Positions 39,626-47,731 of a stretch of 47,731 nucleotides of DNA are shown here, one piece after another; position 1 is the first letter of the stretch, and each line of letters begins with the position of its first letter. The stretch is taken from NCBI GenBank assembly GCA_964440415.1, contig CAYTSL010000001.1:1-47731 (forward strand), given 5' to 3'. A program made the position numbers and the translations under genes. Source of the DNA: an uncultured Flavobacteriaceae bacterium (GTDB taxonomy: Bacteria; Bacteroidota; Bacteroidia; Flavobacteriales; Flavobacteriaceae). The notes under the pieces are model-generated. The model was given only the letters and a program-made list of their open reading frames with translations. It was not told where the DNA came from and did not search any database.

Positions 39626-40741
39626 ATGAAAATAGGTATTTTAAAAGAAACCCAAAAAGGTGATAAACGTGTAGCGATTACACCAAAAATAGCCAAACAA
39701 TTAGTCGAAAAGGGATTTGAAGTTATCGTCCAAGAAGATGCTGGAATAGCTTCAAGTTATAAAAATTCTGACTATAGTAAGGCAGGTGCTCCAATTAGAA
39801 CTAAAGAGGATGTTTTTAAGAATAGTGATGTTATAATTAAAATAAATCCTTTTGATAATGATGAATTAAAAAAACTAAAAAAGGGACAAATAATCATTGC
39901 TCAACTATTCCATAAATCCCATCCAAAAGACATGAAACAAATAGCTAAGCAAGGAGCAACTGCCCTGTCAATGGATGCGATGCCAAGAATTACCAGAGCT
40001 CAAGATATGGATGTGTTGAGTTCACAAAATAACTTAGCAGGATACAAGGCAGTTATTAAGGGAGCATATGAAATGACTAAAATATTCCCGTTAATGATGA
40101 CTGCCGCTGGAACTATTACACCAGCAAGAGTGTTAATATATGGAGTAGGAGTAGCTGGTTTGCAGGCAATAGCAACTGCCAAGCGTTTAGGTGCTATTGT
40201 TGAAGCAACTGACATTAGATTAGAAACAAAAGAACAAACAGAATCTTTAGGCGCTAAGTTTATTTCTGTTGATAATACTGGAGAAGCCGAAGCCGAAGGA
40301 GGGTATGCAAAAGCCGCATCAGAAGATTATGCTAAAAGACAGCAAGATGCAGTTAATGAGTCTCTATTTAAAGCGGATTTAGTTATTACAACTGCAATGG
40401 TGCCAGGAAGACAATCACCAGTATTGATTACTGAAGAACAAGTGAAGCAAATGAAAAATGGAGCTGTCATTATAGATCTAGCTGCTGCTCAAGGTGGAAA
40501 TTGTGAAATAAGTAAACTAAATAAACAGGTTGTAAAGCATGGAGTCAAGGTCTTTGGTGCTACAATAGCACCCGAGAGCGTATCAACAAATGCCAGTGAT
40601 CTATTTGCTAAAAACTTATACAATTATATTATTCATTTAACCGATGGAGTTAAGCTTAAATGGGATCTGGAAGATGAAATAACAAATGAAACATTAATTG
40701 TATTTAATGGTGAAATAAGACAAAACGGTAAAACTGATTAG
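39626..40741 (+). CDS. pntAA: NAD(P) transhydrogenase subunit alpha, part 1 (dI, NAD(H)-binding)
   Basis: 371 aa. It shows the AlaDH/PNT-type pattern (MKIGILKETQKGDKRVAITP) and a Rossmann motif (VLIYGVGVAGLQAIATAKRLGA). It is followed by the small membrane alpha part 2 and the beta subunit. Confidence 0.9.
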   Translation: MKIGILKETQKGDKRVAITPKIAKQLVEKGFEVIVQEDAGIASSYKNSDYSKAGAPIRTKEDVFKNSDVIIKINPFDNDELKKLKKGQIIIAQLFHKSHPKDMKQIAKQGATALSMDAMPRITRAQDMDVLSSQNNLAGYKAVIKGAYEMTKIFPLMMTAAGTITPARVLIYGVGVAGLQAIATAKRLGAIVEATDIRLETKEQTESLGAKFISVDNTGEAEAEGGYAKAASEDYAKRQQDAVNESLFKADLVITTAMVPGRQSPVLITEEQVKQMKNGAVIIDLAAAQGGNCEISKLNKQVVKHGVKVFGATIAPESVSTNASDLFAKNLYNYIIHLTDGVKLKWDLEDEITNETLIVFNGEIRQNGKTD

Positions 40742-40743
40742 AT

Positions 40744-41055
40744 ATGACAGAATTTATAGAATTTATTAAGAACAATCTCGAATTAATATACATCCTAATT
40801 TTAGCGGTATTTATTGGAGTCGAGGTAATTAAAAACATTCCCGCAGTTTTGCATACACCACTCATGTCTGGAGCAAATGCTTTGAGTGGAGTTGTAATAG
40901 TTGGGGCCATTTTAGTTATGCTACATGCTGACCCTGATAATTACATTGCTTTATCACTTGGTTTTATAGCTGTGGTATTAGGAATTATTAATGTTGTAGG
41001 TGGTTTTGCCGTTACTAACAGAATGTTACAAATGTTTAAAAAGAAGAAAAAATGA
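40744..41055 (+). CDS. pntAB: NAD(P) transhydrogenase subunit alpha, part 2 (membrane dII segment)
   Basis: 103 aa with three to four hydrophobic helices. It starts 2 nt after the pntAA stop. Its stop overlaps the pntB start (ATGA at 41052-41055). Confidence 0.85.
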   Translation: MTEFIEFIKNNLELIYILILAVFIGVEVIKNIPAVLHTPLMSGANALSGVVIVGAILVMLHADPDNYIALSLGFIAVVLGIINVVGGFAVTNRMLQMFKKKKK

Positions 41056-42434
41056 ATATAGCCTTAAGTATAATATATCTGATAGCGACCATAACATTTG
41101 TTGTTGGTTTGAAATTATTAGGTCATCCTGAAACTGCTAAAAAAGGTAATTTAATTGCTGCTTCTGGAATGGTACTAGCAATAATAGGCACGATATTTTT
41201 ACATGAATTAGAAGTTCCTATGTTCATTTATATATTAATTGGCGCCGCTATTTTATTAGGGGCTATTATAGGATGGGTAATATCAGTAAAGGTTGAAATG
41301 ACTAAAATGCCAGAACTTGTTTCTTTATTTAATGGATTTGGTGGAGCTAGTGCTGCTTTAATTGGAATTGTTGAATTTGGAAGTAATGTGGGTAATACAA
41401 CACAAATCATAACAATTATAGCTGCAATTGTTATTGGTAGTATTACTTTTTCTGGTAGTATGATTGCATGGGCAAAATTAAACGGAACAATGTGGAAGGA
41501 CATCAGACTTCCAAAATATAATATTATTAATAATGTATTCTTTGTAGGCCTGTTAGGATTCGGTGCTTATATAGTGATGAGTAGCACAGATAGTAATTTT
41601 ATAATTTATTTGTTATTGCTGGCTGCTTTGATATATGGAATATTATTTGTTATTCCTATTGGAGGAGCAGATATGCCAGTTGTAATCTCGTTACTGAACT
41701 CGTTGACAGGGATAGCAGCAGCAATTGCAGGAATTCTGTACGGTAATATGGTCATGATAGTTGGTGGTATTTTAGTGGGTTCAGCCGGTTTGATTCTAAC
41801 TTTTGCGATGTGTGTTGCCATGAATAGATCTCTAGGTAGTGTAATTTTTGGAGCTTTTGGAGGTGAAGAAGCTGCTGCGGTTGGAGACAGCAAAACAGGT
41901 GGAACTGTCAAAAAAACAACGGCTAGTGATGCAGCCGTTATGATGAATTATTCTGATAAAGTAGTAATAGTTCCAGGGTATGGTTTGGCGGTTGCACAGG
42001 CACAACATGTAATTCATGAATTAGAAGAACTTTTAACCAAAAAGGGCGTAGAAGTTTCCTATGCTATTCATCCTGTAGCTGGTAGAATGCCAGGACATAT
42101 GAATGTTCTTTTAGCGGAAAGCAATGTAGATTATGACAAACTGATTGATATGGATGATATCAATCCTCAATTTAAAAATACTGATGTAGTGTTTGTTGTT
42201 GGAGCCAACGACGTTGTAAATCCAGCAGCACATAACAACCCAGCGAGTCCTATTTATGGGATGCCTATTTTAGATGTGGAAGACGCTAAGACTATAATAA
42301 TTAATAAACGTAGTATGAATCCTGGTTATGCAGGTATAGAAAATGAATTATTCTATAACCAAAAAACCTCCATGTTATTTGGAGATGCAAAAGCAATGAT
42401 TCAGGAATTACTCACCGAACTAAAGGGAATGTAA
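41052..42434 (+). CDS. pntB: NAD(P) transhydrogenase subunit beta (dII membrane + dIII NADP(H)-binding)
   Basis: 460 aa. The N-terminal half is multi-TM. The C-terminal dIII domain has the motifs VIVPGYGLAVAQAQH, HPVAGRMPGHMNVLLAE and GANDVVNPAA. Confidence 0.9.
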   Translation: MNIALSIIYLIATITFVVGLKLLGHPETAKKGNLIAASGMVLAIIGTIFLHELEVPMFIYILIGAAILLGAIIGWVISVKVEMTKMPELVSLFNGFGGASAALIGIVEFGSNVGNTTQIITIIAAIVIGSITFSGSMIAWAKLNGTMWKDIRLPKYNIINNVFFVGLLGFGAYIVMSSTDSNFIIYLLLLAALIYGILFVIPIGGADMPVVISLLNSLTGIAAAIAGILYGNMVMIVGGILVGSAGLILTFAMCVAMNRSLGSVIFGAFGGEEAAAVGDSKTGGTVKKTTASDAAVMMNYSDKVVIVPGYGLAVAQAQHVIHELEELLTKKGVEVSYAIHPVAGRMPGHMNVLLAESNVDYDKLIDMDDINPQFKNTDVVFVVGANDVVNPAAHNNPASPIYGMPILDVEDAKTIIINKRSMNPGYAGIENELFYNQKTSMLFGDAKAMIQELLTELKGM

Positions 42435-42505: not shown

Positions 42506-43192
42506 CTATTCAAAGAATTCTAAAACCTTAATTTTATTTCTAGTTGAATAGATCTTACCTTCATCATGCAGTTGTTTGATTATTCTTGTAATAACAACTC
42601 TTGACGAGTTTAAATCATTAGCTATTTCCTGATGAGTGATCTCCAGATCCACATTATTTGATATTTTAACCTTATCCGTCAAATATTTTAGTAATCGTTC
42701 ATTCATTTTCATAAATGCCAAGCCATCTATAGATTCTACCATTTCAATTAATCTAAAATGATAACTATCTATAATAAAATGACGCCAGGATTTGAATCTA
42801 GCCAACCAATCATCAATATTTTCTACGGGTATAAAAACAGCCTCCATATCACGTTCAACAACACCTTTAAAAATACTTTGTTTTCTGTTGATACAGTTTA
42901 CAAAAGAAATTGCACAAGTATCACCTCGTTCTAAAAAATAAAGCACAATTTCTTCGCCTTCTTTTTCCTGTCGAATAATTTTTACAACACCATCTAAAAT
43001 TAGTGGAATATGTGTCATTTCTGAACCAATATCTATTAAAAGTTCACCACTTTTAACTTTGTCAAAATGACCAACTTTTACTATTTCGTCAATTAGTTCT
43101 TCTTCAAAAACTTCAGAATAGTAATCGTTCAGTTTTTCTCTTAAAATTAGTTCTTGGGTAATCACTGTATTATGAATTCTAAAATGATGCAC
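42506..43192 (-). CDS. Crp/Fnr-family transcriptional regulator (paralog A)
   Basis: 228 aa with a cNMP-binding-like barrel and a C-terminal HTH (ITHQEIANDLNSSRVVITRIIKQLHDEGKI). By eye it is roughly 55-60% identical to 46866..47516. The annotated start is GTG at 43192, and the true start may lie downstream. Confidence 0.85.
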   Translation of the reverse strand: MHHFRIHNTVITQELILREKLNDYYSEVFEEELIDEIVKVGHFDKVKSGELLIDIGSEMTHIPLILDGVVKIIRQEKEGEEIVLYFLERGDTCAISFVNCINRKQSIFKGVVERDMEAVFIPVENIDDWLARFKSWRHFIIDSYHFRLIEMVESIDGLAFMKMNERLLKYLTDKVKISNNVDLEITHQEIANDLNSSRVVITRIIKQLHDEGKIYSTRNKIKVLEFFE

Positions 43193-43213
43193 AAAGGTAA
43201 CAAAATAGAATAG

Positions 43214-43243
43214 AAAAAACCCTCTAACTTTCGCTTGAGGGCC
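43214..43243 (-). terminator. Putative rho-independent terminator after the porin gene
   Basis: The minus strand reads CCCTC-N11-GAGGG followed by TTTTTT. It starts about 48 nt downstream of the porin stop (43291). Confidence 0.5.
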
Positions 43244-43290
43244 TTAAGTTCAAAATTAAGTTAATTAATACAGTGAAAACAATTAAAAAA

Positions 43291-44352
43291 TTAGAACTTT
43301 ATCTGCAATTGAGCTAATAGAGCATCGTTATCAACATTTACAACGGTTTCAATATTGGCTAAATAATTCAATTGAAATCTTACCTTGTCATTAAAGAAAT
43401 AATTAATACCTATAGTCATTCTTTCTTGGTAATCAATATTGCCCTTTAGATCTGTGTCTGGATCAAAGGATTCATATTTAAATACAGGTTGGAATTTCTC
43501 GCTTACATCGTAAGACGCCATAATATATCCACCTTGTGATGTTAATCCATCAAGATCAATAGGGTCTACTCCGCAGCCACCACCTGCTCCAGGTTGATAA
43601 GCACCATCATCATGCATGTATTCACCTTGTACTTTAAATTTCTCTAATTCTACCAAAAATTCAAATCCATAAGTGGTACGTTCTTCCTCATTATTATTAA
43701 GTTTTGGAAACCCATATCTAAAGCTACCACCAATTGATAAGAAATCGGTAATTTTATAGGTAGCTCTTCCAATAACATCTTTTTTAGTATTATTATCTGC
43801 AATTTTTAAACCTCTACCGTTCATTATTGCAAAAGCATAATTAAGTTTGTTGTATTTATTGCCACCATAAACACCAAGACCAAAATCTCGTTGAGGAGAT
43901 ACCAGTTGATCTGCAACTATAGATCTTTCTATTGTGGTTAATGAATGACATGGTGTAGCTACTTCTAAACTGAATGGTTGTTTAAAGGTACCTACAGAAA
44001 TTCTAGCCCAATTATCTGCGTTGTAAGTAATAAAAGCATCCATCAAATAAACATCTTCTTGATCGTCACCACCAATAAATGGGCTCGCTTCAAGCATGAA
44101 GTAGTAAGAGAAATCCTTATATACAGTACCTCTTACACCAATTCGAGCTCTTTTAAATTTGAAGGTATTTTTATTGTCTCCACCATCAAAATTATAATCA
44201 TATTGCGGCTGTATGTACCCAAATATTTTTACACTTGGTGCACTAACAGAATCGTTACTTGTTGGCTCATCACCTTCACAACCTTGTGCGAATACTTGAT
44301 TTACTTGGAAAAGTAATACAAGAGCAAATAATATATATATTTTGCTTTTCAT
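43291..44352 (-). CDS. Phosphate-selective porin O/P (OprO/OprP)-family outer-membrane anion porin
   Basis: 353 aa with a signal peptide (QVFAQG). The family pattern is FKFKRARIGVRGTV...YLMDAFITYNADNWARISVGTFKQPFSLE....TIERS. It ends in the C-terminal ...LQIKF typical of OM barrels. Confidence 0.8.
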   Translation of the reverse strand: MKSKIYILFALVLLFQVNQVFAQGCEGDEPTSNDSVSAPSVKIFGYIQPQYDYNFDGGDNKNTFKFKRARIGVRGTVYKDFSYYFMLEASPFIGGDDQEDVYLMDAFITYNADNWARISVGTFKQPFSLEVATPCHSLTTIERSIVADQLVSPQRDFGLGVYGGNKYNKLNYAFAIMNGRGLKIADNNTKKDVIGRATYKITDFLSIGGSFRYGFPKLNNNEEERTTYGFEFLVELEKFKVQGEYMHDDGAYQPGAGGGCGVDPIDLDGLTSQGGYIMASYDVSEKFQPVFKYESFDPDTDLKGNIDYQERMTIGINYFFNDKVRFQLNYLANIETVVNVDNDALLAQLQIKF

Positions 44353-44378
44353 TTGTTTGTTTTTTAAAGGTCATATGT

Positions 44379-44430
44379 AACATCCATAACAATCATTCTA
44401 TTTAGAATAGAAATTTCAGTTATGGATGTT
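44379..44430 (-). other. Nested intercistronic stem-loop: 12-bp outer stem AACATCCATAAC/GTTATGGATGTT enclosing 7-bp inner stem TTCTATT-TAG-AATAGAA
   Basis: Read directly from the sequence, in the 105-nt gap between the rhodanese lipoprotein stop (44458) and the porin start (44352). There is no U-tract on the transcribed strand. Confidence 0.5.
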
Positions 44431-44457
44431 TCATTATGTGTTTATTATTTAACTAAA

Positions 44458-45477
44458 TTAATTAGATGAAATAACTGGATAATCTTTAGGATTTGAAGAA
44501 CCAACTCCCCATTGATTTGATGACCATGCTGCGTTATCGTGGTACATTCCGTTCATACCAAATGTTAACGTTTTTGCATTGTATCCTAAAACTCTTAAAG
44601 TGGCAGTTAAAACAGCAGATGTTTGTCCAGTGTAGCAGTATGTAACTAAAGCACTTGCATCAGGATCAAGACTTAAATAACTATTATCAGCAAGGGTGAA
44701 TTGATAAATTCTTTTAGCTCCATCAATATGGCCAAAACCTGCATAATCAGTATCACTAAAATAGTTATTAATGAAGTAATTGCCTGGATTTGCTATAACA
44801 TCTGTACCACTTACGGTAGCATCACCAAATCCATTTGTAGAACCAACAACTGCCTCAACTCTTTGTTTTAGAATTGCTAATCCGTCTGTTAAACTAGTAG
44901 AAATTACAGGATCATCGAATGTTTGGTTAGAAGGAGCTATATCAGAAGACCAATTAGTATGCCCATTAGCATGAGTTCCTACTTTGGCTGTCCAAGAATC
45001 TGTAGCTGAATTCCATCCAGACATTCCCCATTTTAGGGCTCTTGTACTAGAATGTCCGTACATACGTAATAAAGCTGTTGCATAGCAAGCTGTTTGACCA
45101 GTATAACAAACTACAAGAATTGGTTTGCTTGCACTAGCAGCTTCAGTTAAAATATCTGAAAAGGCAACATTAATTGCACCGTTTACATGTGAAGTACTAA
45201 ATGCATCAGCACTTCTAATATCCATAATGTGATAAGTAGCTAAAAATCCATCTACAAGTGCTGCTTCAGCTGGTGCTGCTACAACAAATTTTTGTCCATC
45301 TGTATTTACTAGTATGTTGTTAACATCTAAACTGTTTTGTACCATATACTCTGTCATTAGAGTAAATGCTGGTGTTGCAACTGGAGTAGTTCCAGGGTCG
45401 TCTCCGCTATCGCAAGAGGTTAGGAAAAATGCAGGAACTAATAATAATCCTATTAAATAAATTGATAATTTTTTCAT
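44458..45477 (-). CDS. Tandem-rhodanese lipoprotein with two Cys-containing active-site loops
   Basis: 339 aa with a lipoprotein signal and an acidic tail (LTSCDSGDDPG). Domain 1: YHIMDIRSADAF...ILVVCYTGQTACY...LKWGMSGW. Domain 2: GHIDGAKRI...LVTYCYTGQTSAV. The six-residue CYTGQT loops are of the sulfurtransferase (GlpE-like) type. Confidence 0.85.
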   Translation of the reverse strand: MKKLSIYLIGLLLVPAFFLTSCDSGDDPGTTPVATPAFTLMTEYMVQNSLDVNNILVNTDGQKFVVAAPAEAALVDGFLATYHIMDIRSADAFSTSHVNGAINVAFSDILTEAASASKPILVVCYTGQTACYATALLRMYGHSSTRALKWGMSGWNSATDSWTAKVGTHANGHTNWSSDIAPSNQTFDDPVISTSLTDGLAILKQRVEAVVGSTNGFGDATVSGTDVIANPGNYFINNYFSDTDYAGFGHIDGAKRIYQFTLADNSYLSLDPDASALVTYCYTGQTSAVLTATLRVLGYNAKTLTFGMNGMYHDNAAWSSNQWGVGSSNPKDYPVISSN

Positions 45478-45514
45478 GACTATTTGTTTAAGTTATATTA
45501 TGTTTTGTTTGTTT

Positions 45515-46492
45515 TTATTCTATTACTGGGAACATGTTAATTTCTTTTTTGGTAAAGGCGTCCCAACCTTTATCTTTTAAAACCTCATTCATAAAGCTGT
45601 TTTCGCCATAAGCCAGATTACCTGTTTGGTAACCCAATACATTAAGGTATGCTACTATATAAGCTGCTTTTTGACCTGTAGCTTCATAGACCACAACTTT
45701 TTGATCTATAGGAAGTGTAAGTAAATCGTTTGCTAATGATGCGTTAGGTGCAAAGTGTAGGGTTCCTGGTATGTGACCTTCACATTTTTCTTGATCCCAA
45801 TAGTTTATTATATAATAGTTGTCTGGAGCTTCGAATATATCTAATGATTTCACGATAAACTCTTTATAAGGAGTAGCGAATAATGTTTCTAATCTTGCAC
45901 TTAAAATGTCTTTAGCTTCGGTTTTTCCTGTGCTTAATATAGGATGAGGTCCCATTTCTGGTTTTGCTTTCTCTGTTGTTTCTAATTTTGAAGCAAAATC
46001 ATTTTTAATGTTCTTGTTCCATGAATTGTTGGCGAAATCTTCTCTCCAAGAGCTCATTCCCCATTTCATGCTATATACATTATCGTATCCAGCTAATCTT
46101 AACAAACTTGAGTAATAGGCTGCAGATTGACCAGAGTAACATACCATTACTATTTTATCAAAATCTGAAGGGTTGATAGTACCTTCAAAGTAAGTCAACA
46201 GATTTGCTGATTTTACGTTGGCCGCATTTTTAATATGACCATATTCAAACCAACTTTCACTTCTAATATCAATAACATGATATTTAGGGTTTTTCATATT
46301 TTTCTTAACCTCATCTGCAATAATTAGTGGTATTTCGCCATTAATAAAGCTGGTATTGGTTTCTAAATATTTTACCAGAGTTTCGAATTCATCTGGATTG
46401 TTTGTAGCAGGATTATCTACTTGTCCAAAACTGCTTGTTAGAGCAGTAAACGAAATAAATAATGCTACTAAAAAAAAGACTGTTTTTTTCAT
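45515..46492 (-). CDS. Exported tandem-rhodanese protein with one active loop and one Cys-less loop
   Basis: 325 aa with a type-I signal peptide (TSSFGQVD). Domain 1: YHVIDIRSESWFEYGHIKNAANV...IVMVCYSGQSAAY...MKWGMSSW. Domain 2 has VVVYEATGQKAAY, with Glu in place of the catalytic Cys. Confidence 0.85.
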   Translation of the reverse strand: MKKTVFFLVALFISFTALTSSFGQVDNPATNNPDEFETLVKYLETNTSFINGEIPLIIADEVKKNMKNPKYHVIDIRSESWFEYGHIKNAANVKSANLLTYFEGTINPSDFDKIVMVCYSGQSAAYYSSLLRLAGYDNVYSMKWGMSSWREDFANNSWNKNIKNDFASKLETTEKAKPEMGPHPILSTGKTEAKDILSARLETLFATPYKEFIVKSLDIFEAPDNYYIINYWDQEKCEGHIPGTLHFAPNASLANDLLTLPIDQKVVVYEATGQKAAYIVAYLNVLGYQTGNLAYGENSFMNEVLKDKGWDAFTKKEINMFPVIE

Positions 46493-46620
46493 ATTATAAT
46501 TATTTAAAATTCAAAAATTTAATTGTTTTACTTGGGGATAAAATTATATTCGGGAGAACTCTATTTTTATGACTTTTGAGTAATACATAATCGGTTAATA
46601 CAGTATCATTTGTCACATTC

Positions 46621-46642
46621 TTTGGTAACATATGTTACCAAA
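46621..46642. promoter_or_regulatory. 22-bp perfect palindrome TTTGGTAACATATGTTACCAAA (core GTAAC-N4-GTTAC); candidate Crp/Fnr-type operator in the rhodanese operon leader
   Basis: Read directly from the sequence. It is centred about 140 nt upstream of the ATG at 46492, inside a 373-bp intergenic region. The 5-4-5 geometry equals that of FNR-type boxes, but with different half-sites. Confidence 0.5.
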
Positions 46643-46865
46643 TATTATTAATTGATTTTACGAGGAATATCAATTATAAAGTACAGTATATCAATTACTT
46701 ATATATAAAATATTACTTTTATTTATTTAATCAGTTTGAAGACGGCAGTTAAATTTAGAATTGTAAAAAGAAAAAATAGGAGCAAGCCGATTTTAAACAA
46801 TTTCTAGTTACTAAAAAAGAAGTAAAAAAACGTCAAATTTGGAATATTACTACGTAATAAAATAA

Positions 46866-47516
46866 CTAAACAAGAACATCAATTTTGTTCCTTCCTAGTT
46901 TAATTTTGCCCTCATGTTCCAGAGATTTTAAGAGTCTAGATACCACTACTCGAGAAGTATGAAGATCATTTGCTATTTCTTGATGCGTTATAAAAAGCTT
47001 TTTGGAATGTTTTATGTCAATTTGTTTAGCCAGATATTTGTAAACACGATCGTCTAATTTTAGAAATGCAAGACTTCTTATTGCATCTCCTAGTTCTAAA
47101 AGTCTATTATGGTAACTATCAATAATGAAAATGCGCCAAGTTTTATATTTGGTTATCCACTCTTCAATTTTATTTACAGGAAATAAAACACATTCAGTAT
47201 CTTGTTCTACATAAGCTCTGAACATACTTTTGTTTTTGTTGATGCAGTTCACAAAAGAAATAGCACAAGTGTCGCCTTCCTCCAAAAAATAAAGCAATAT
47301 TTCATCCTCATGTTGATCCTCTCTAAGCACTTTAATAAGACCATTTAATATCAGAGGAATATGAGTCATCTCATCACCAATATCAATAAGCATTTCACCC
47401 TTTTTATAAGTCTTATAGATTCCGTTTTTGGCTATTTCATTAATAAGTCTTGTTTCAAAAACACTATCAAAATGCTTGTGCAATTGTTCCTTTAAAAAAG
47501 TTATGTTTTGTTCCAT
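46866..47516 (-). CDS. Crp/Fnr-family transcriptional regulator (paralog B)
   Basis: 216 aa with a cNMP-binding-like barrel and an HTH (ITHQEIANDLHTSRVVVSRLLKSLEHEGKI). It shares the GDTCAISFVNC motif with paralog A. Confidence 0.85.
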   Translation of the reverse strand: MEQNITFLKEQLHKHFDSVFETRLINEIAKNGIYKTYKKGEMLIDIGDEMTHIPLILNGLIKVLREDQHEDEILLYFLEEGDTCAISFVNCINKNKSMFRAYVEQDTECVLFPVNKIEEWITKYKTWRIFIIDSYHNRLLELGDAIRSLAFLKLDDRVYKYLAKQIDIKHSKKLFITHQEIANDLHTSRVVVSRLLKSLEHEGKIKLGRNKIDVLV

Positions 47517-47587: not shown

Positions 47588-47731
47588 TTAACAACCACCT
47601 TCTACAGGCATTTTTTTTTTCTTTTTAACAGGAACTACTTTTTTTGAAGTTTTATTAATAACAGGTTTTGGTTTATCTTCTACAGGATAGTTTTTAACAT
47701 CGTCTTTTGTCCATCCATTCCATTTCTTCTC
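47588..47731 (-). CDS. 3' end of an unidentified gene entering from the right window edge (Lys-rich tail ending ...MPVEGGC)
   Basis: My own translation of the complement is EKKWNGWTKDDVKNYPVEDKPKPVINKTSKKVVPVKKKKKMPVEGGC*, with the stop as the complement of 47588-47590. It is open to the window edge. It is short and low in complexity, so the coding status is uncertain. Confidence 0.35.
   Translation of the reverse strand, partial: EKKWNGWTKDDVKNYPVEDKPKPVINKTSKKVVPVKKKKKMPVEGGC

Follow-up and report, generated by a model that had tools for sequence, protein, structure and literature searches.

Models of sulfur respiration and oxidation have an acknowledged gap, namely how sulfur species that are insoluble or anionic get across the outer membrane (PMC10045233). 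In Geobacter sulfurreducens, extH, which encodes a rhodanese-like lipoprotein, and extI, which encodes an OprP-like porin, lie adjacent to extKL. ExtI is an outer-membrane porin needed for selenite and tellurite reduction (PMC5877670), and ExtKL (MccSep), which reduces polysulfide in the periplasm, is indispensable for respiration of elemental sulfur (S0) (PMC13510729); ExtI also influences the localization of ExtH, according to the citation in the latter paper of a 2019 study in Biochemical and Biophysical Research Communications. This arrangement is the closest described analogue of a locus that we report here from an uncultured Flavobacteriaceae bacterium. The window that we analyzed is a whole contig of 47,731 bp (CAYTSL010000001.1, C1 below) from a 520-contig assembly, in which we focus on five genes: those of two exported tandem rhodaneses (the soluble Rhd2 and the lipoprotein RhdLipo), of an OprO/P-family porin, and of two flanking Crp/Fnr paralogues (CrpA and CrpB). 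They form the distal end of a single locus of about 12 genes that is conserved in Bacteroidota and is a version of a known kind of system in which a rhodanese-assisted polysulfide/thiosulfate reductase is combined with an ExtH/ExtI-like outer-membrane pair. In our reading, to which we give a probability of about 0.7, the locus would handle an inorganic sulfur compound across the whole envelope, most likely polysulfide/sulfane sulfur or thiosulfate, by means of PsrABC assisted by rhodaneses and an outer-membrane pair.

A first-pass annotation of the window had regarded the pairing of rhodaneses with an anion porin as undescribed, a view that does not survive comparison with ExtH/ExtI beside MccSep (PMC5877670, PMC13510729). 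As in Geobacter, a lipoprotein-rhodanese gene lies directly beside an OprO/P-like porin gene and is combined with a periplasmic polysulfide-reducing enzyme. The reductase here, however, is a PsrABC with a molybdenum-bis(pyranopterin guanine dinucleotide) (Mo-bisPGD) cofactor, or in Bacteroidales a Qmo-like complex, whereas that of Geobacter is a multihaem selenocytochrome. The regulator also differs, Fur for the ext genes and a CX6C-type Crp here, and the soluble rhodanese, YeeE and carriers with an EGGC arm are additions absent from the ext cluster.

The locus also resembles the Psr systems of Wolinella succinogenes and Thermus thermophilus, with a PsrA exported by twin-arginine translocation (Tat), PsrB, an NrfD-type PsrC and periplasmic rhodanese-type carriers encoded alongside. 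In Wolinella, Sud is the periplasmic polysulfide-sulfur transferase; Rhd2 and RhdLipo are tandem-domain, GlpE-like rhodaneses with marginal similarity to it. To our knowledge, neither a dedicated porin nor a lipoprotein partner has been described for these systems. Psr genes with rhodaneses nearby have been reported from Marine Group A fosmids (PMC3906813) and cable bacteria (PMC13047784), and the only mention that we found for Flavobacteriia is a passing one of "SQR, polysulfide reductase" in the genome paper of Lutibacter profundi (PMC5219744).

One conserved locus across a contig end

Open reading frame and Pfam analysis recovered all five minus-strand genes at the coordinates and with the domains and loops of the first-pass annotation, which had noted that there are no psr or inner-membrane transporter genes in the window and had left the downstream route open. 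That absence is literally true and an artefact, because the contig breaks mid-locus. The final 55 nucleotides (nt) of the window are identical to the first 55 nt of another contig of the assembly, C77, and the reading frame is continuous across the join. On the same strand as the window genes, C77 carries a Tat-signal psrA, psrB, psrC, two YeeE/YedE half-genes, a gene for a membrane-anchored rhodanese-domain protein and the 5' part of the gene that the window's end interrupts. The joined order is psrA-psrB-psrC-yeeEa-yeeEb-TMRhd(EGGC)-tripleRhd(EGGC)-CrpB-Rhd2-RhdLipo-porin-CrpA, and the identical order is found without interruption on long contigs of three congeners. The module is thus no orphan: psrABC, the split YeeE/YedE and the GGC-tailed rhodaneses lie on the abutting contig and in most relatives.

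We surveyed synteny in 80 species, with full-flank counts taken from 45 loci; the taxa include Jejuia, Polaribacter, Algibacter, Winogradskyella, Mariniflexile, Salinimicrobium, Lutibacter, Lutimonas and Maribacter, as well as Bacteroidales and Marinilabiliales. RhdLipo is followed by the porin in 80/80 loci, across families and orders. Rhd2 lies upstream of RhdLipo in 68 of the 80, and a CX6C-Crp gene follows the porin in 62. With full flanks, PsrA is found within 10 kb in 32/45 loci, YeeE within 10 kb in 33/45, a sulfide quinone reductase (SQR) with DsrC nearby in 13/45, and a second Crp gene in 6/45. Among 41 relatives, PsrA, the porin and RhdLipo are confined to the same seven genomes and absent from the other 34, a perfect overlap with a chance of 4.4e-8, to be read in the light of the seven genomes representing three independent lineages only. 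All eight genomes in which the block lies away from psr still carry an orthologous PsrA (74-78% identity). The unit is thus conserved and syntenic, as the first-pass annotation had claimed.

Could these genes be neighbours by chance, a phosphate-type porin beside unrelated rhodaneses, with Crp genes that are general cAMP/FNR regulators without any link to them? Public annotations do name the porin "phosphate-selective porin". An adjacency that is kept in every surveyed locus and a phyletic profile that is that of PsrA speak against it, however, as do an operator that is conserved and co-varies with regulator type and the replacement of the cAMP-contacting cassette by a Cys pair (see below). 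This possibility is refuted by synteny and co-occurrence.

The RhdLipo-porin pair also occurs in other gene arrays. In a genome of another family (G027), a small lipoprotein rhodanese ending in SGGC, RhdLipo, the porin, an SseA-like rhodanese and psrABC are encoded on one strand. The Bacteroidales array, checked on locus L102, reads TusA-YeeE-sRhd(GGCG)-RhdLipo-porin-SseA-sRhd-DsrE-TusA-FlpD, with HdrA/QmoA-like genes. These associations make the pair a portable outer-membrane module, a modular front end for sulfur compounds.

Porin, exported rhodaneses, reductase and carriers

The porin belongs to Porin_O_P (PF07396; E 9e-27, 94.7 bits against a gathering cutoff of 20.9), and its only sequence matches in the PDB are OprP and OprO. 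An AlphaFold2 model built from 80 sequences (pLDDT, the predicted local distance difference test score, 80.8) has 16 strands and the trimeric-porin fold, and a Foldseek search with it returned OprP with the best query TM-score (0.71), followed by OprO (0.69). OprO and OprP owe their phosphate/pyrophosphate selectivity to an arginine ladder and a lysine cluster. The porin described here shares with them the Pfam family and the 16-strand fold, and has many invariant Arg/Lys residues (ten in the family alignment). In contrast to OprP/OprO, it has 353 rather than 411-429 residues, homology to them is detectable over the N-terminal ~140 residues only, and it carries three invariant cysteines, one of them in a GGCG loop, and has no link to phosphate genes. 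The cysteines are invariant in 80-81 sequences; in the model, C25 lies in the flexible mature N-terminus, C135 in a long L3-type loop and C260 in the GGCG loop. We did not find a porin with three invariant cysteines described in the literature. A large protein search with the porin profile gave, among the matches listed, close Bacteroidota orthologues only, and the family comprises more than 1,400 clusters at 90% identity, with more than 300 species-level matches.

The porin's sole NCBIfam match is ExtI (NF040900; 61.8 bits against a cutoff of 150, residues 56-188 only), which stays below equivalog level. It would nonetheless agree with a locus that serves selenite/tellurite, as first reported for Geobacter ExtI/ExtH, with the porin admitting selenite and the rhodaneses and YedE-type proteins trafficking selenium. 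The YeeE halves weakly match models of YedE selenium transporters, and the tandem rhodanese of G027 scores 85.6 bits against the ExtH model (cutoff 200). All of these matches are below curated cutoffs, however, the reductase of the ext cluster itself has proved to reduce polysulfide in S0 respiration (PMC13510729), and the genes co-regulated with our locus are classic sulfur genes (SQR, PDO, TauE, DsrC). Neither did we find a selenoprotein: a candidate selenocysteine in the psrA of a further genome (G015) was rejected, its in-frame TGA lying upstream of the true start in an alignment overhang and its Mo-ligand motif, AQCRGPRE, having Cys. We consider a selenium role very unlikely.

Pfam finds two rhodanese stretches each in Rhd2, which has a Sec-type signal peptide, and in RhdLipo, whose lipobox is LTSC. 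The PF00581 fold with a six-residue loop starting with Cys is present in domain 1 of Rhd2 and in both domains of RhdLipo, as in catalytic rhodanese sulfurtransferases; the active loops of Rhd2 domain 2 and of most transmembrane (TM)-anchored rhodanese domains lack the Cys. Scored across 69-81 orthologues per protein, the cysteines of the lipobox and the active loops vary little or not at all: C118 of Rhd2 is kept in 100%, as are C22, C124 and C281 of RhdLipo, and C131 of RhdLipo in 96%. One locus (L084) has two tandem Rhd2 genes.

RhdLipo may possibly be exposed at the cell surface. The lipoprotein export signal (LES) of Bacteroidota takes the form C-X-K-(D/E)2-X or an S-D-D-D-D-type acidic signal directly after the lipidated Cys. 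The position of its acidic residues matters (PMC5080379). All 73 RhdLipo sequences compared have at least two acidic residues at +2 to +7 after the lipobox, in the form C-D-[R/K/S]-G-D-[D/E], which resembles this signal with the acidic pair one position off the optimum.

Rhd2, RhdLipo and the porin fit one operon, to judge from median gaps among relatives of 36 and 23.5 nt within it and of 117.5 nt between the porin and CrpA, which appears to be transcribed separately. A terminator had been placed at about 43214-43243, and RNA folding bears this out with a hairpin followed by U6 (Table 1). A strong stem-loop in the RhdLipo-porin gap is not conserved, given the median gap of 23.5 nt in relatives; it was considered as a repeated element, similar to repetitive extragenic palindromes or miniature inverted-repeat transposable elements, and rejected as such, being single copy in the genome. 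A scan for sigma-70 promoters gave no more matches than in shuffles, the sigma-70 model being unsuited to Bacteroidota promoters.

On C77, a Tat-exported Mo-bisPGD subunit, a four-cluster iron-sulfur subunit and an NrfD-type membrane subunit are encoded in one operon, the composition of PsrABC/PhsABC. PsrA has the Tat signal SRRKFIK and matches the Thermus PsrA structure 2VPW from end to end (E 5e-186). Among NCBIfam models, PhsA scores highest with it, but its 459 bits stay below the equivalog cutoff of 694, so that this model does not settle a Psr against a Phs substrate. In one congener (L022/L033, G003:C16:191144-193475), TAA stops within the reading frame break psrA into two frames, and no psrB was called, which reflects either a copy in decay or a mistake in the assembly of this metagenome-assembled genome, itself 73% complete.

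The membrane-anchored rhodanese-domain protein encoded on C77 ends in KKKKKMPVEGGC. Joining the cut gene across the two contigs (47632-47731 + C77:2-1402) gives a protein of 483 residues with the same C-terminal end, KKKKKMPVEGGC, in which a TM anchor, three Pfam rhodanese domains (the middle one with CYSGQS) and a Lys-rich linker precede the terminal EGGC. This second EGGC-rhodanese is here fused to a tandem rhodanese that resembles Rhd2 and shares 48% identity with it; the counterpart in relatives is a single-domain protein of 221 residues. All 99 TM-anchored rhodanese proteins compared end in EGGC, its Cys is the sole one in 37/50 proteins of the TMRhdGGC1 group, and the small Bacteroidales versions end in GGCG(G). 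The TM-anchored proteins probably face the periplasm. SoxY carries a C-terminal GGCGG swinging arm, to which these tails compare as a terminal Gly-Gly-Cys on the flexible tail of a periplasmic sulfur-handling protein, the Bacteroidales GGCG(G) coming close to GGCGG. Unlike in SoxY, the arm here sits on a membrane-anchored rhodanese-homology domain, usually without an active-loop Cys, and neither SoxZ nor Sox enzymes accompany it. We found no EGGC-tailed rhodanese carriers described in the literature.

The YeeE halves are membrane proteins of the Sulf_transp family with conserved Cys motifs. Like YeeE/YeeD (TsuA/TsuB), they are encoded beside a Cys-bearing sulfur carrier; in contrast to that system, YeeE is split in two genes and its partners are TM-anchored rhodanese-domain proteins, with no TusA-like YeeD. 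Apart from the YedE models, the halves weakly match models of the TsuA thiosulfate transporter. This match would be in keeping with an assimilatory role, the reading of the first-pass annotation, in which thiosulfate or sulfane sulfur is imported as a sulfur source, Psr freeing sulfide in the periplasm and YeeE importing thiosulfate for cysteine synthesis. So would the non-detection of CysI/Sir-type sulfite reductase in the window's genome, its five congeners, G015 and G027, in line with the check for missing assimilatory sulfate reduction that the first-pass annotation had proposed. CysI is lacking, however, in 30/41 relatives, 23 of which are also without the module, so that there is no specific correlation and no specific support for this role; and a quinone-linked Mo enzyme that is co-regulated with SQR, PDO and TauE-type genes and hydrogenases is a signature of energy metabolism or detoxification rather than of a nutrient scavenger. 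Assimilatory acquisition is possible, in our view unlikely, and less supported than a dissimilatory or detoxification role.

Table 1. Features of the window and of the locus end that it contains
Feature	Coordinates	Strand	Basis
CrpA, Crp/Fnr regulator; GDTCAISFVNC (C-x6-C) in ligand barrel, recognition helix SSRVVITR	42506..43192	-	ORF (open reading frame) + Pfam
Hairpin + U6, likely intrinsic terminator of the Rhd2-RhdLipo-porin transcript	~43210..43245	-	RNA fold
OprO/P-family 16-stranded porin; three invariant cysteines C25, C135, C260 (GGCG loop)	43291..44352	-	Pfam PF07396
Strong nested intercistronic stem-loop, RhdLipo-porin gap	44372..44438	-	Minimum free energy -23.5 kcal/mol, z -5.19
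RhdLipo, tandem-rhodanese lipoprotein; two CYTGQT active loops, acidic C-D-S-G-D-D N-terminus	44458..45477	-	ORF + Pfam
Rhd2, Sec-exported soluble tandem rhodanese; one CYSGQS active loop, second loop Cys-less	45515..46492	-	ORF + Pfam
22-bp perfect palindrome TTTGGTAACATATGTTACCAAA, core GTAAC-N4-GTTAC, predicted CX6C-Crp operator	46621..46642	.	Centre 140 nt before Rhd2 start
CrpB, second CX6C Crp/Fnr paralogue	46866..47516	-	ORF + Pfam
3' end of gene cut by the contig end	47632..47731	-	55-nt C1/C77 overlap, continuous frame

CX6C Crp/Fnr regulators and the GTAAC-N4-GTTAC box

CrpA and CrpB are 54.8% identical, and each combines the Pfam domains cNMP_binding and HTH_Crp_2. Both cysteines of the C-x6-C pair are 100% conserved in CrpA/B (61 sequences for CrpA), and in the wider regulator family the first is present in 26/27 and the second in 20/27. 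In this family, which we call CX6C-Crp, the Cys pair takes the place of the cassette that contacts cAMP (the cyclic nucleotide), and the recognition helix, (T/S)SRVV(V/I)SR, hardly varies and is NtcA-like. The nearest solved relative of CrpB is PDB 3DV8, an uncharacterized Crp/Fnr protein with a C-x5-C pair at the CX6C position, so that a structure of the Cys-pair pocket may already exist.

The predicted operator, GTAAC-N4-GTTAC, is a subset of NtcA's GTA-N8-TAC. All ten exact cores in the window's genome are intergenic, against 0-3 in shuffles; across the 80 loci, 142 of 173 box sites are intergenic, where intergenic sequence makes up 14.5% of the total (P about 1e-87). Offsets are fixed among relatives: the box precedes Rhd2 by about 125 or 147 nt, psrA by 90-93 nt and SQR by 100-125 nt. 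In this genome, exact boxes precede Rhd2, a type III SQR with DsrC/TusE, a PDO-rhodanese and a second YeeE pair, and a one-mismatch box lies 94 nt before psrA. Exact boxes also precede a PsrBC-like fusion, a thioredoxin/cytochrome c/rhodanese operon with a third paralogue, CrpC, a Hox-type hydrogenase and a FadL-like outer-membrane protein.

The box co-varies with regulator type. It is present in 51/61 loci with a CX6C-Crp and in 0/9 with an FNR-like regulator, whereas an FNR-type box with at most one mismatch occurs in 2/61 of the former and 7/9 of the latter. This co-variation supports the prediction, made in the first-pass annotation, that the Crp paralogues regulate the unit. The dual arrangement that it also emphasized is not a defining feature of the locus, because CrpB, which sits between the psr-proximal operon and Rhd2, is found in a minority of loci.

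FNR-like regulators lie upstream of the module in Bacteroidales (L093, L096, L098-L100, L105, L106), most of them with an N-terminal C-x7/8-C-x-C cluster, for example NTCTVGLDRCTCF, and their loci carry boxes of TTGAT-N4-ATCAA type. An assignment of these Bacteroidales regulators to classic FNR was rejected: C-x2-C-x5-C is present in 2/11 only, most having a different N-terminal Cys cluster.

The CX6C-Crp family occurs in 29/41 relatives, usually beside TauE and a PDO-rhodanese. In genomes without the Psr module, its gene adjoins TauE, PDO-rhodanese, SulP, small rhodaneses, thioredoxin or YeeE, with the same boxes. Known sensors of reactive sulfur species (RSS), namely CstR, SqrR/BigR and FisR, control SQR, PDO-rhodanese, TauE, YeeE and sulfurtransferases, and a 2026 review lists the CsoR, ArsR and Fis families together with MarR and OxyR secondary sensors, a list from which a Crp/Fnr member is absent (PMC13467558). 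With a predicted regulon of SQR, PDO, TauE, YeeE and sulfurtransferase genes and a conserved Cys pair, the CX6C-Crp proteins would qualify as RSS sensors; they share regulon content and Cys pair with the known ones and differ in family, Crp/Fnr instead of CsoR, ArsR or Fis. A Crp-family regulator of a sulfide/persulfide-type regulon was not found described in the literature. The same consensus box has been predicted for the HcpR2 branch (PMC1274295). CX6C-Crp proteins nevertheless differ from HcpR2 in their S-R-V-V recognition helix, with Val at position 181 where HcpR2 has Pro, and in their neighbours, which are sulfur genes with no co-localized hcp (hcp elsewhere in the genome was not searched for).

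Several further boxes in the window's own genome deserve description. A stretch of contig C5 (11-4543) with four boxes encodes a PsrB-NrfD fusion (538 residues), a thioredoxin, a cytochrome c/Tll0287-like lipoprotein, a rhodanese of 112 residues and CrpC; a one-mismatch box on the same contig (C5:13918) precedes the gene of a Tat-signal iron-sulfur protein. Two tandem operons for NAD-linked (Hox-type) hydrogenases lie at C35:3056-9671, where an exact box 32 nt upstream of the NuoE/F-like diaphorase gene suggests that hydrogen metabolism may belong to the same regulon. The FadL/OmpP1-family outer-membrane protein (C40:5241-6795), which has an exact box 132 nt upstream, might let hydrophobic sulfur (S8) through, or might be an unrelated target. 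With 647.6 bits, the SQR (C123:546-1808) exceeds the cutoff that NCBIfam sets for "type III sulfide quinone reductase, selenoprotein subtype", and it is encoded by an ordinary open reading frame without an in-frame stop. Within the window, the transhydrogenase genes pntA-pntAB-pntB (39626-42434) are convergent with CrpA, a neighbourhood kept within the genus (L021-L023, L033, L044) and not outside it.

A proposed flow of sulfur across the envelope

The first-pass annotation had proposed an exported unit that handles sulfane sulfur, polysulfide or thiosulfate across the outer membrane, and with the completed locus this is plausible. Here, the OprO/P-type porin would admit anionic sulfur species, and RhdLipo, anchored in the outer membrane, and the soluble periplasmic Rhd2 would load sulfane sulfur onto their active-site cysteines, in a manner comparable to Wolinella Sud and Geobacter ExtH. 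The rhodaneses would then pass the sulfur to periplasmic PsrA, which would exchange electrons with menaquinone via PsrB and PsrC. Membrane-anchored rhodanese-domain proteins may carry sulfur on their flexible C-terminal EGGC arms, as SoxY does, and serve PsrA, the YeeE/YedE channel or both. The CX6C-Crp paralogues would switch on the whole set, probably as activators and with sulfide or sulfane sulfur as the likely signal, and SQR-DsrC, the PDO-rhodanese and the second YeeE pair would respond together with the locus.

The composition of this regulon also bears on the direction of flow. A box shared with type III SQR, DsrC/TusE and PDO-rhodanese, and SQR-DsrC adjacent in the 13 loci noted above, would suit an outward process of sulfide detoxification or oxidation, with Psr acting as a periplasmic sulfide:menaquinone oxidoreductase while the rhodaneses and the porin carry sulfane sulfur or polysulfide out. 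The quinone of Flavobacteriia is menaquinone, with which the sulfide-oxidation direction is favourable, and the Marine Group A study likewise considers Psr in H2S oxidation (PMC3906813). On the other hand, the characterized Psr/Phs enzymes of Wolinella, Shewanella and Salmonella are reductases in vivo, the FNR-like regulators and FNR-type boxes of the Bacteroidales front end suggest use under anoxia, and an LES-like lipoprotein with a specific porin fits uptake better than export. We regard outward flow as rather unlikely.

Several points count against the rhodanese-assisted PsrABC reading that we prefer. The reaction may run in either direction; with menaquinone as partner, oxidizing sulfide is thermodynamically easier than reducing polysulfide. 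Orthology of Rhd2 and RhdLipo with Sud had to be rejected (E 0.04), and the ExtH model (NF040901) matches neither protein at E<=0.01. The putative anion selectivity of the porin derives from family membership alone, and charge leaves the first TM-rhodanese ambiguous in orientation, for which its fusion to a Rhd2-like exported domain is the sole support. Psr and Phs substrates are indistinguishable from sequence (PMC13047784), and Lutibacter profundi, a carrier of such genes, was not stimulated by thiosulfate (PMC5219744).

A bolder proposal joins two claims, and we advance their conjunction only tentatively. The first is that Flavobacteriales use CX6C Crp/Fnr proteins as dedicated sensors of sulfide/sulfane sulfur, which would make these proteins a fourth structural class after CsoR/CstR, ArsR/SqrR and Fis/FisR, with a di- or polysulfide bridge forming between the two pocket cysteines. 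The second is that their target locus forms a covalent thiol relay from one side of the envelope to the other, in which sulfur would move from a rhodanese lipoprotein at the cell surface, via a porin whose lining includes the three invariant cysteines, to the periplasmic rhodanese, on to the SoxY-like EGGC arms, and from these to the PsrA funnel or the YeeE channel.

The module is widespread in marine and sediment Bacteroidota, organisms usually treated as aerobic polymer degraders, and connects these bacteria with the cryptic sulfur cycle of particles, sediments and waters poor in oxygen. The porin/lipoprotein pair, found with PsrABC, with a Qmo-like complex and, by analogy, with MccSep, provides a handle for finding more sulfur-respiring systems. 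If confirmed, the CX6C-Crp family would fill the place of the missing sulfide/persulfide sensor of an entire phylum.

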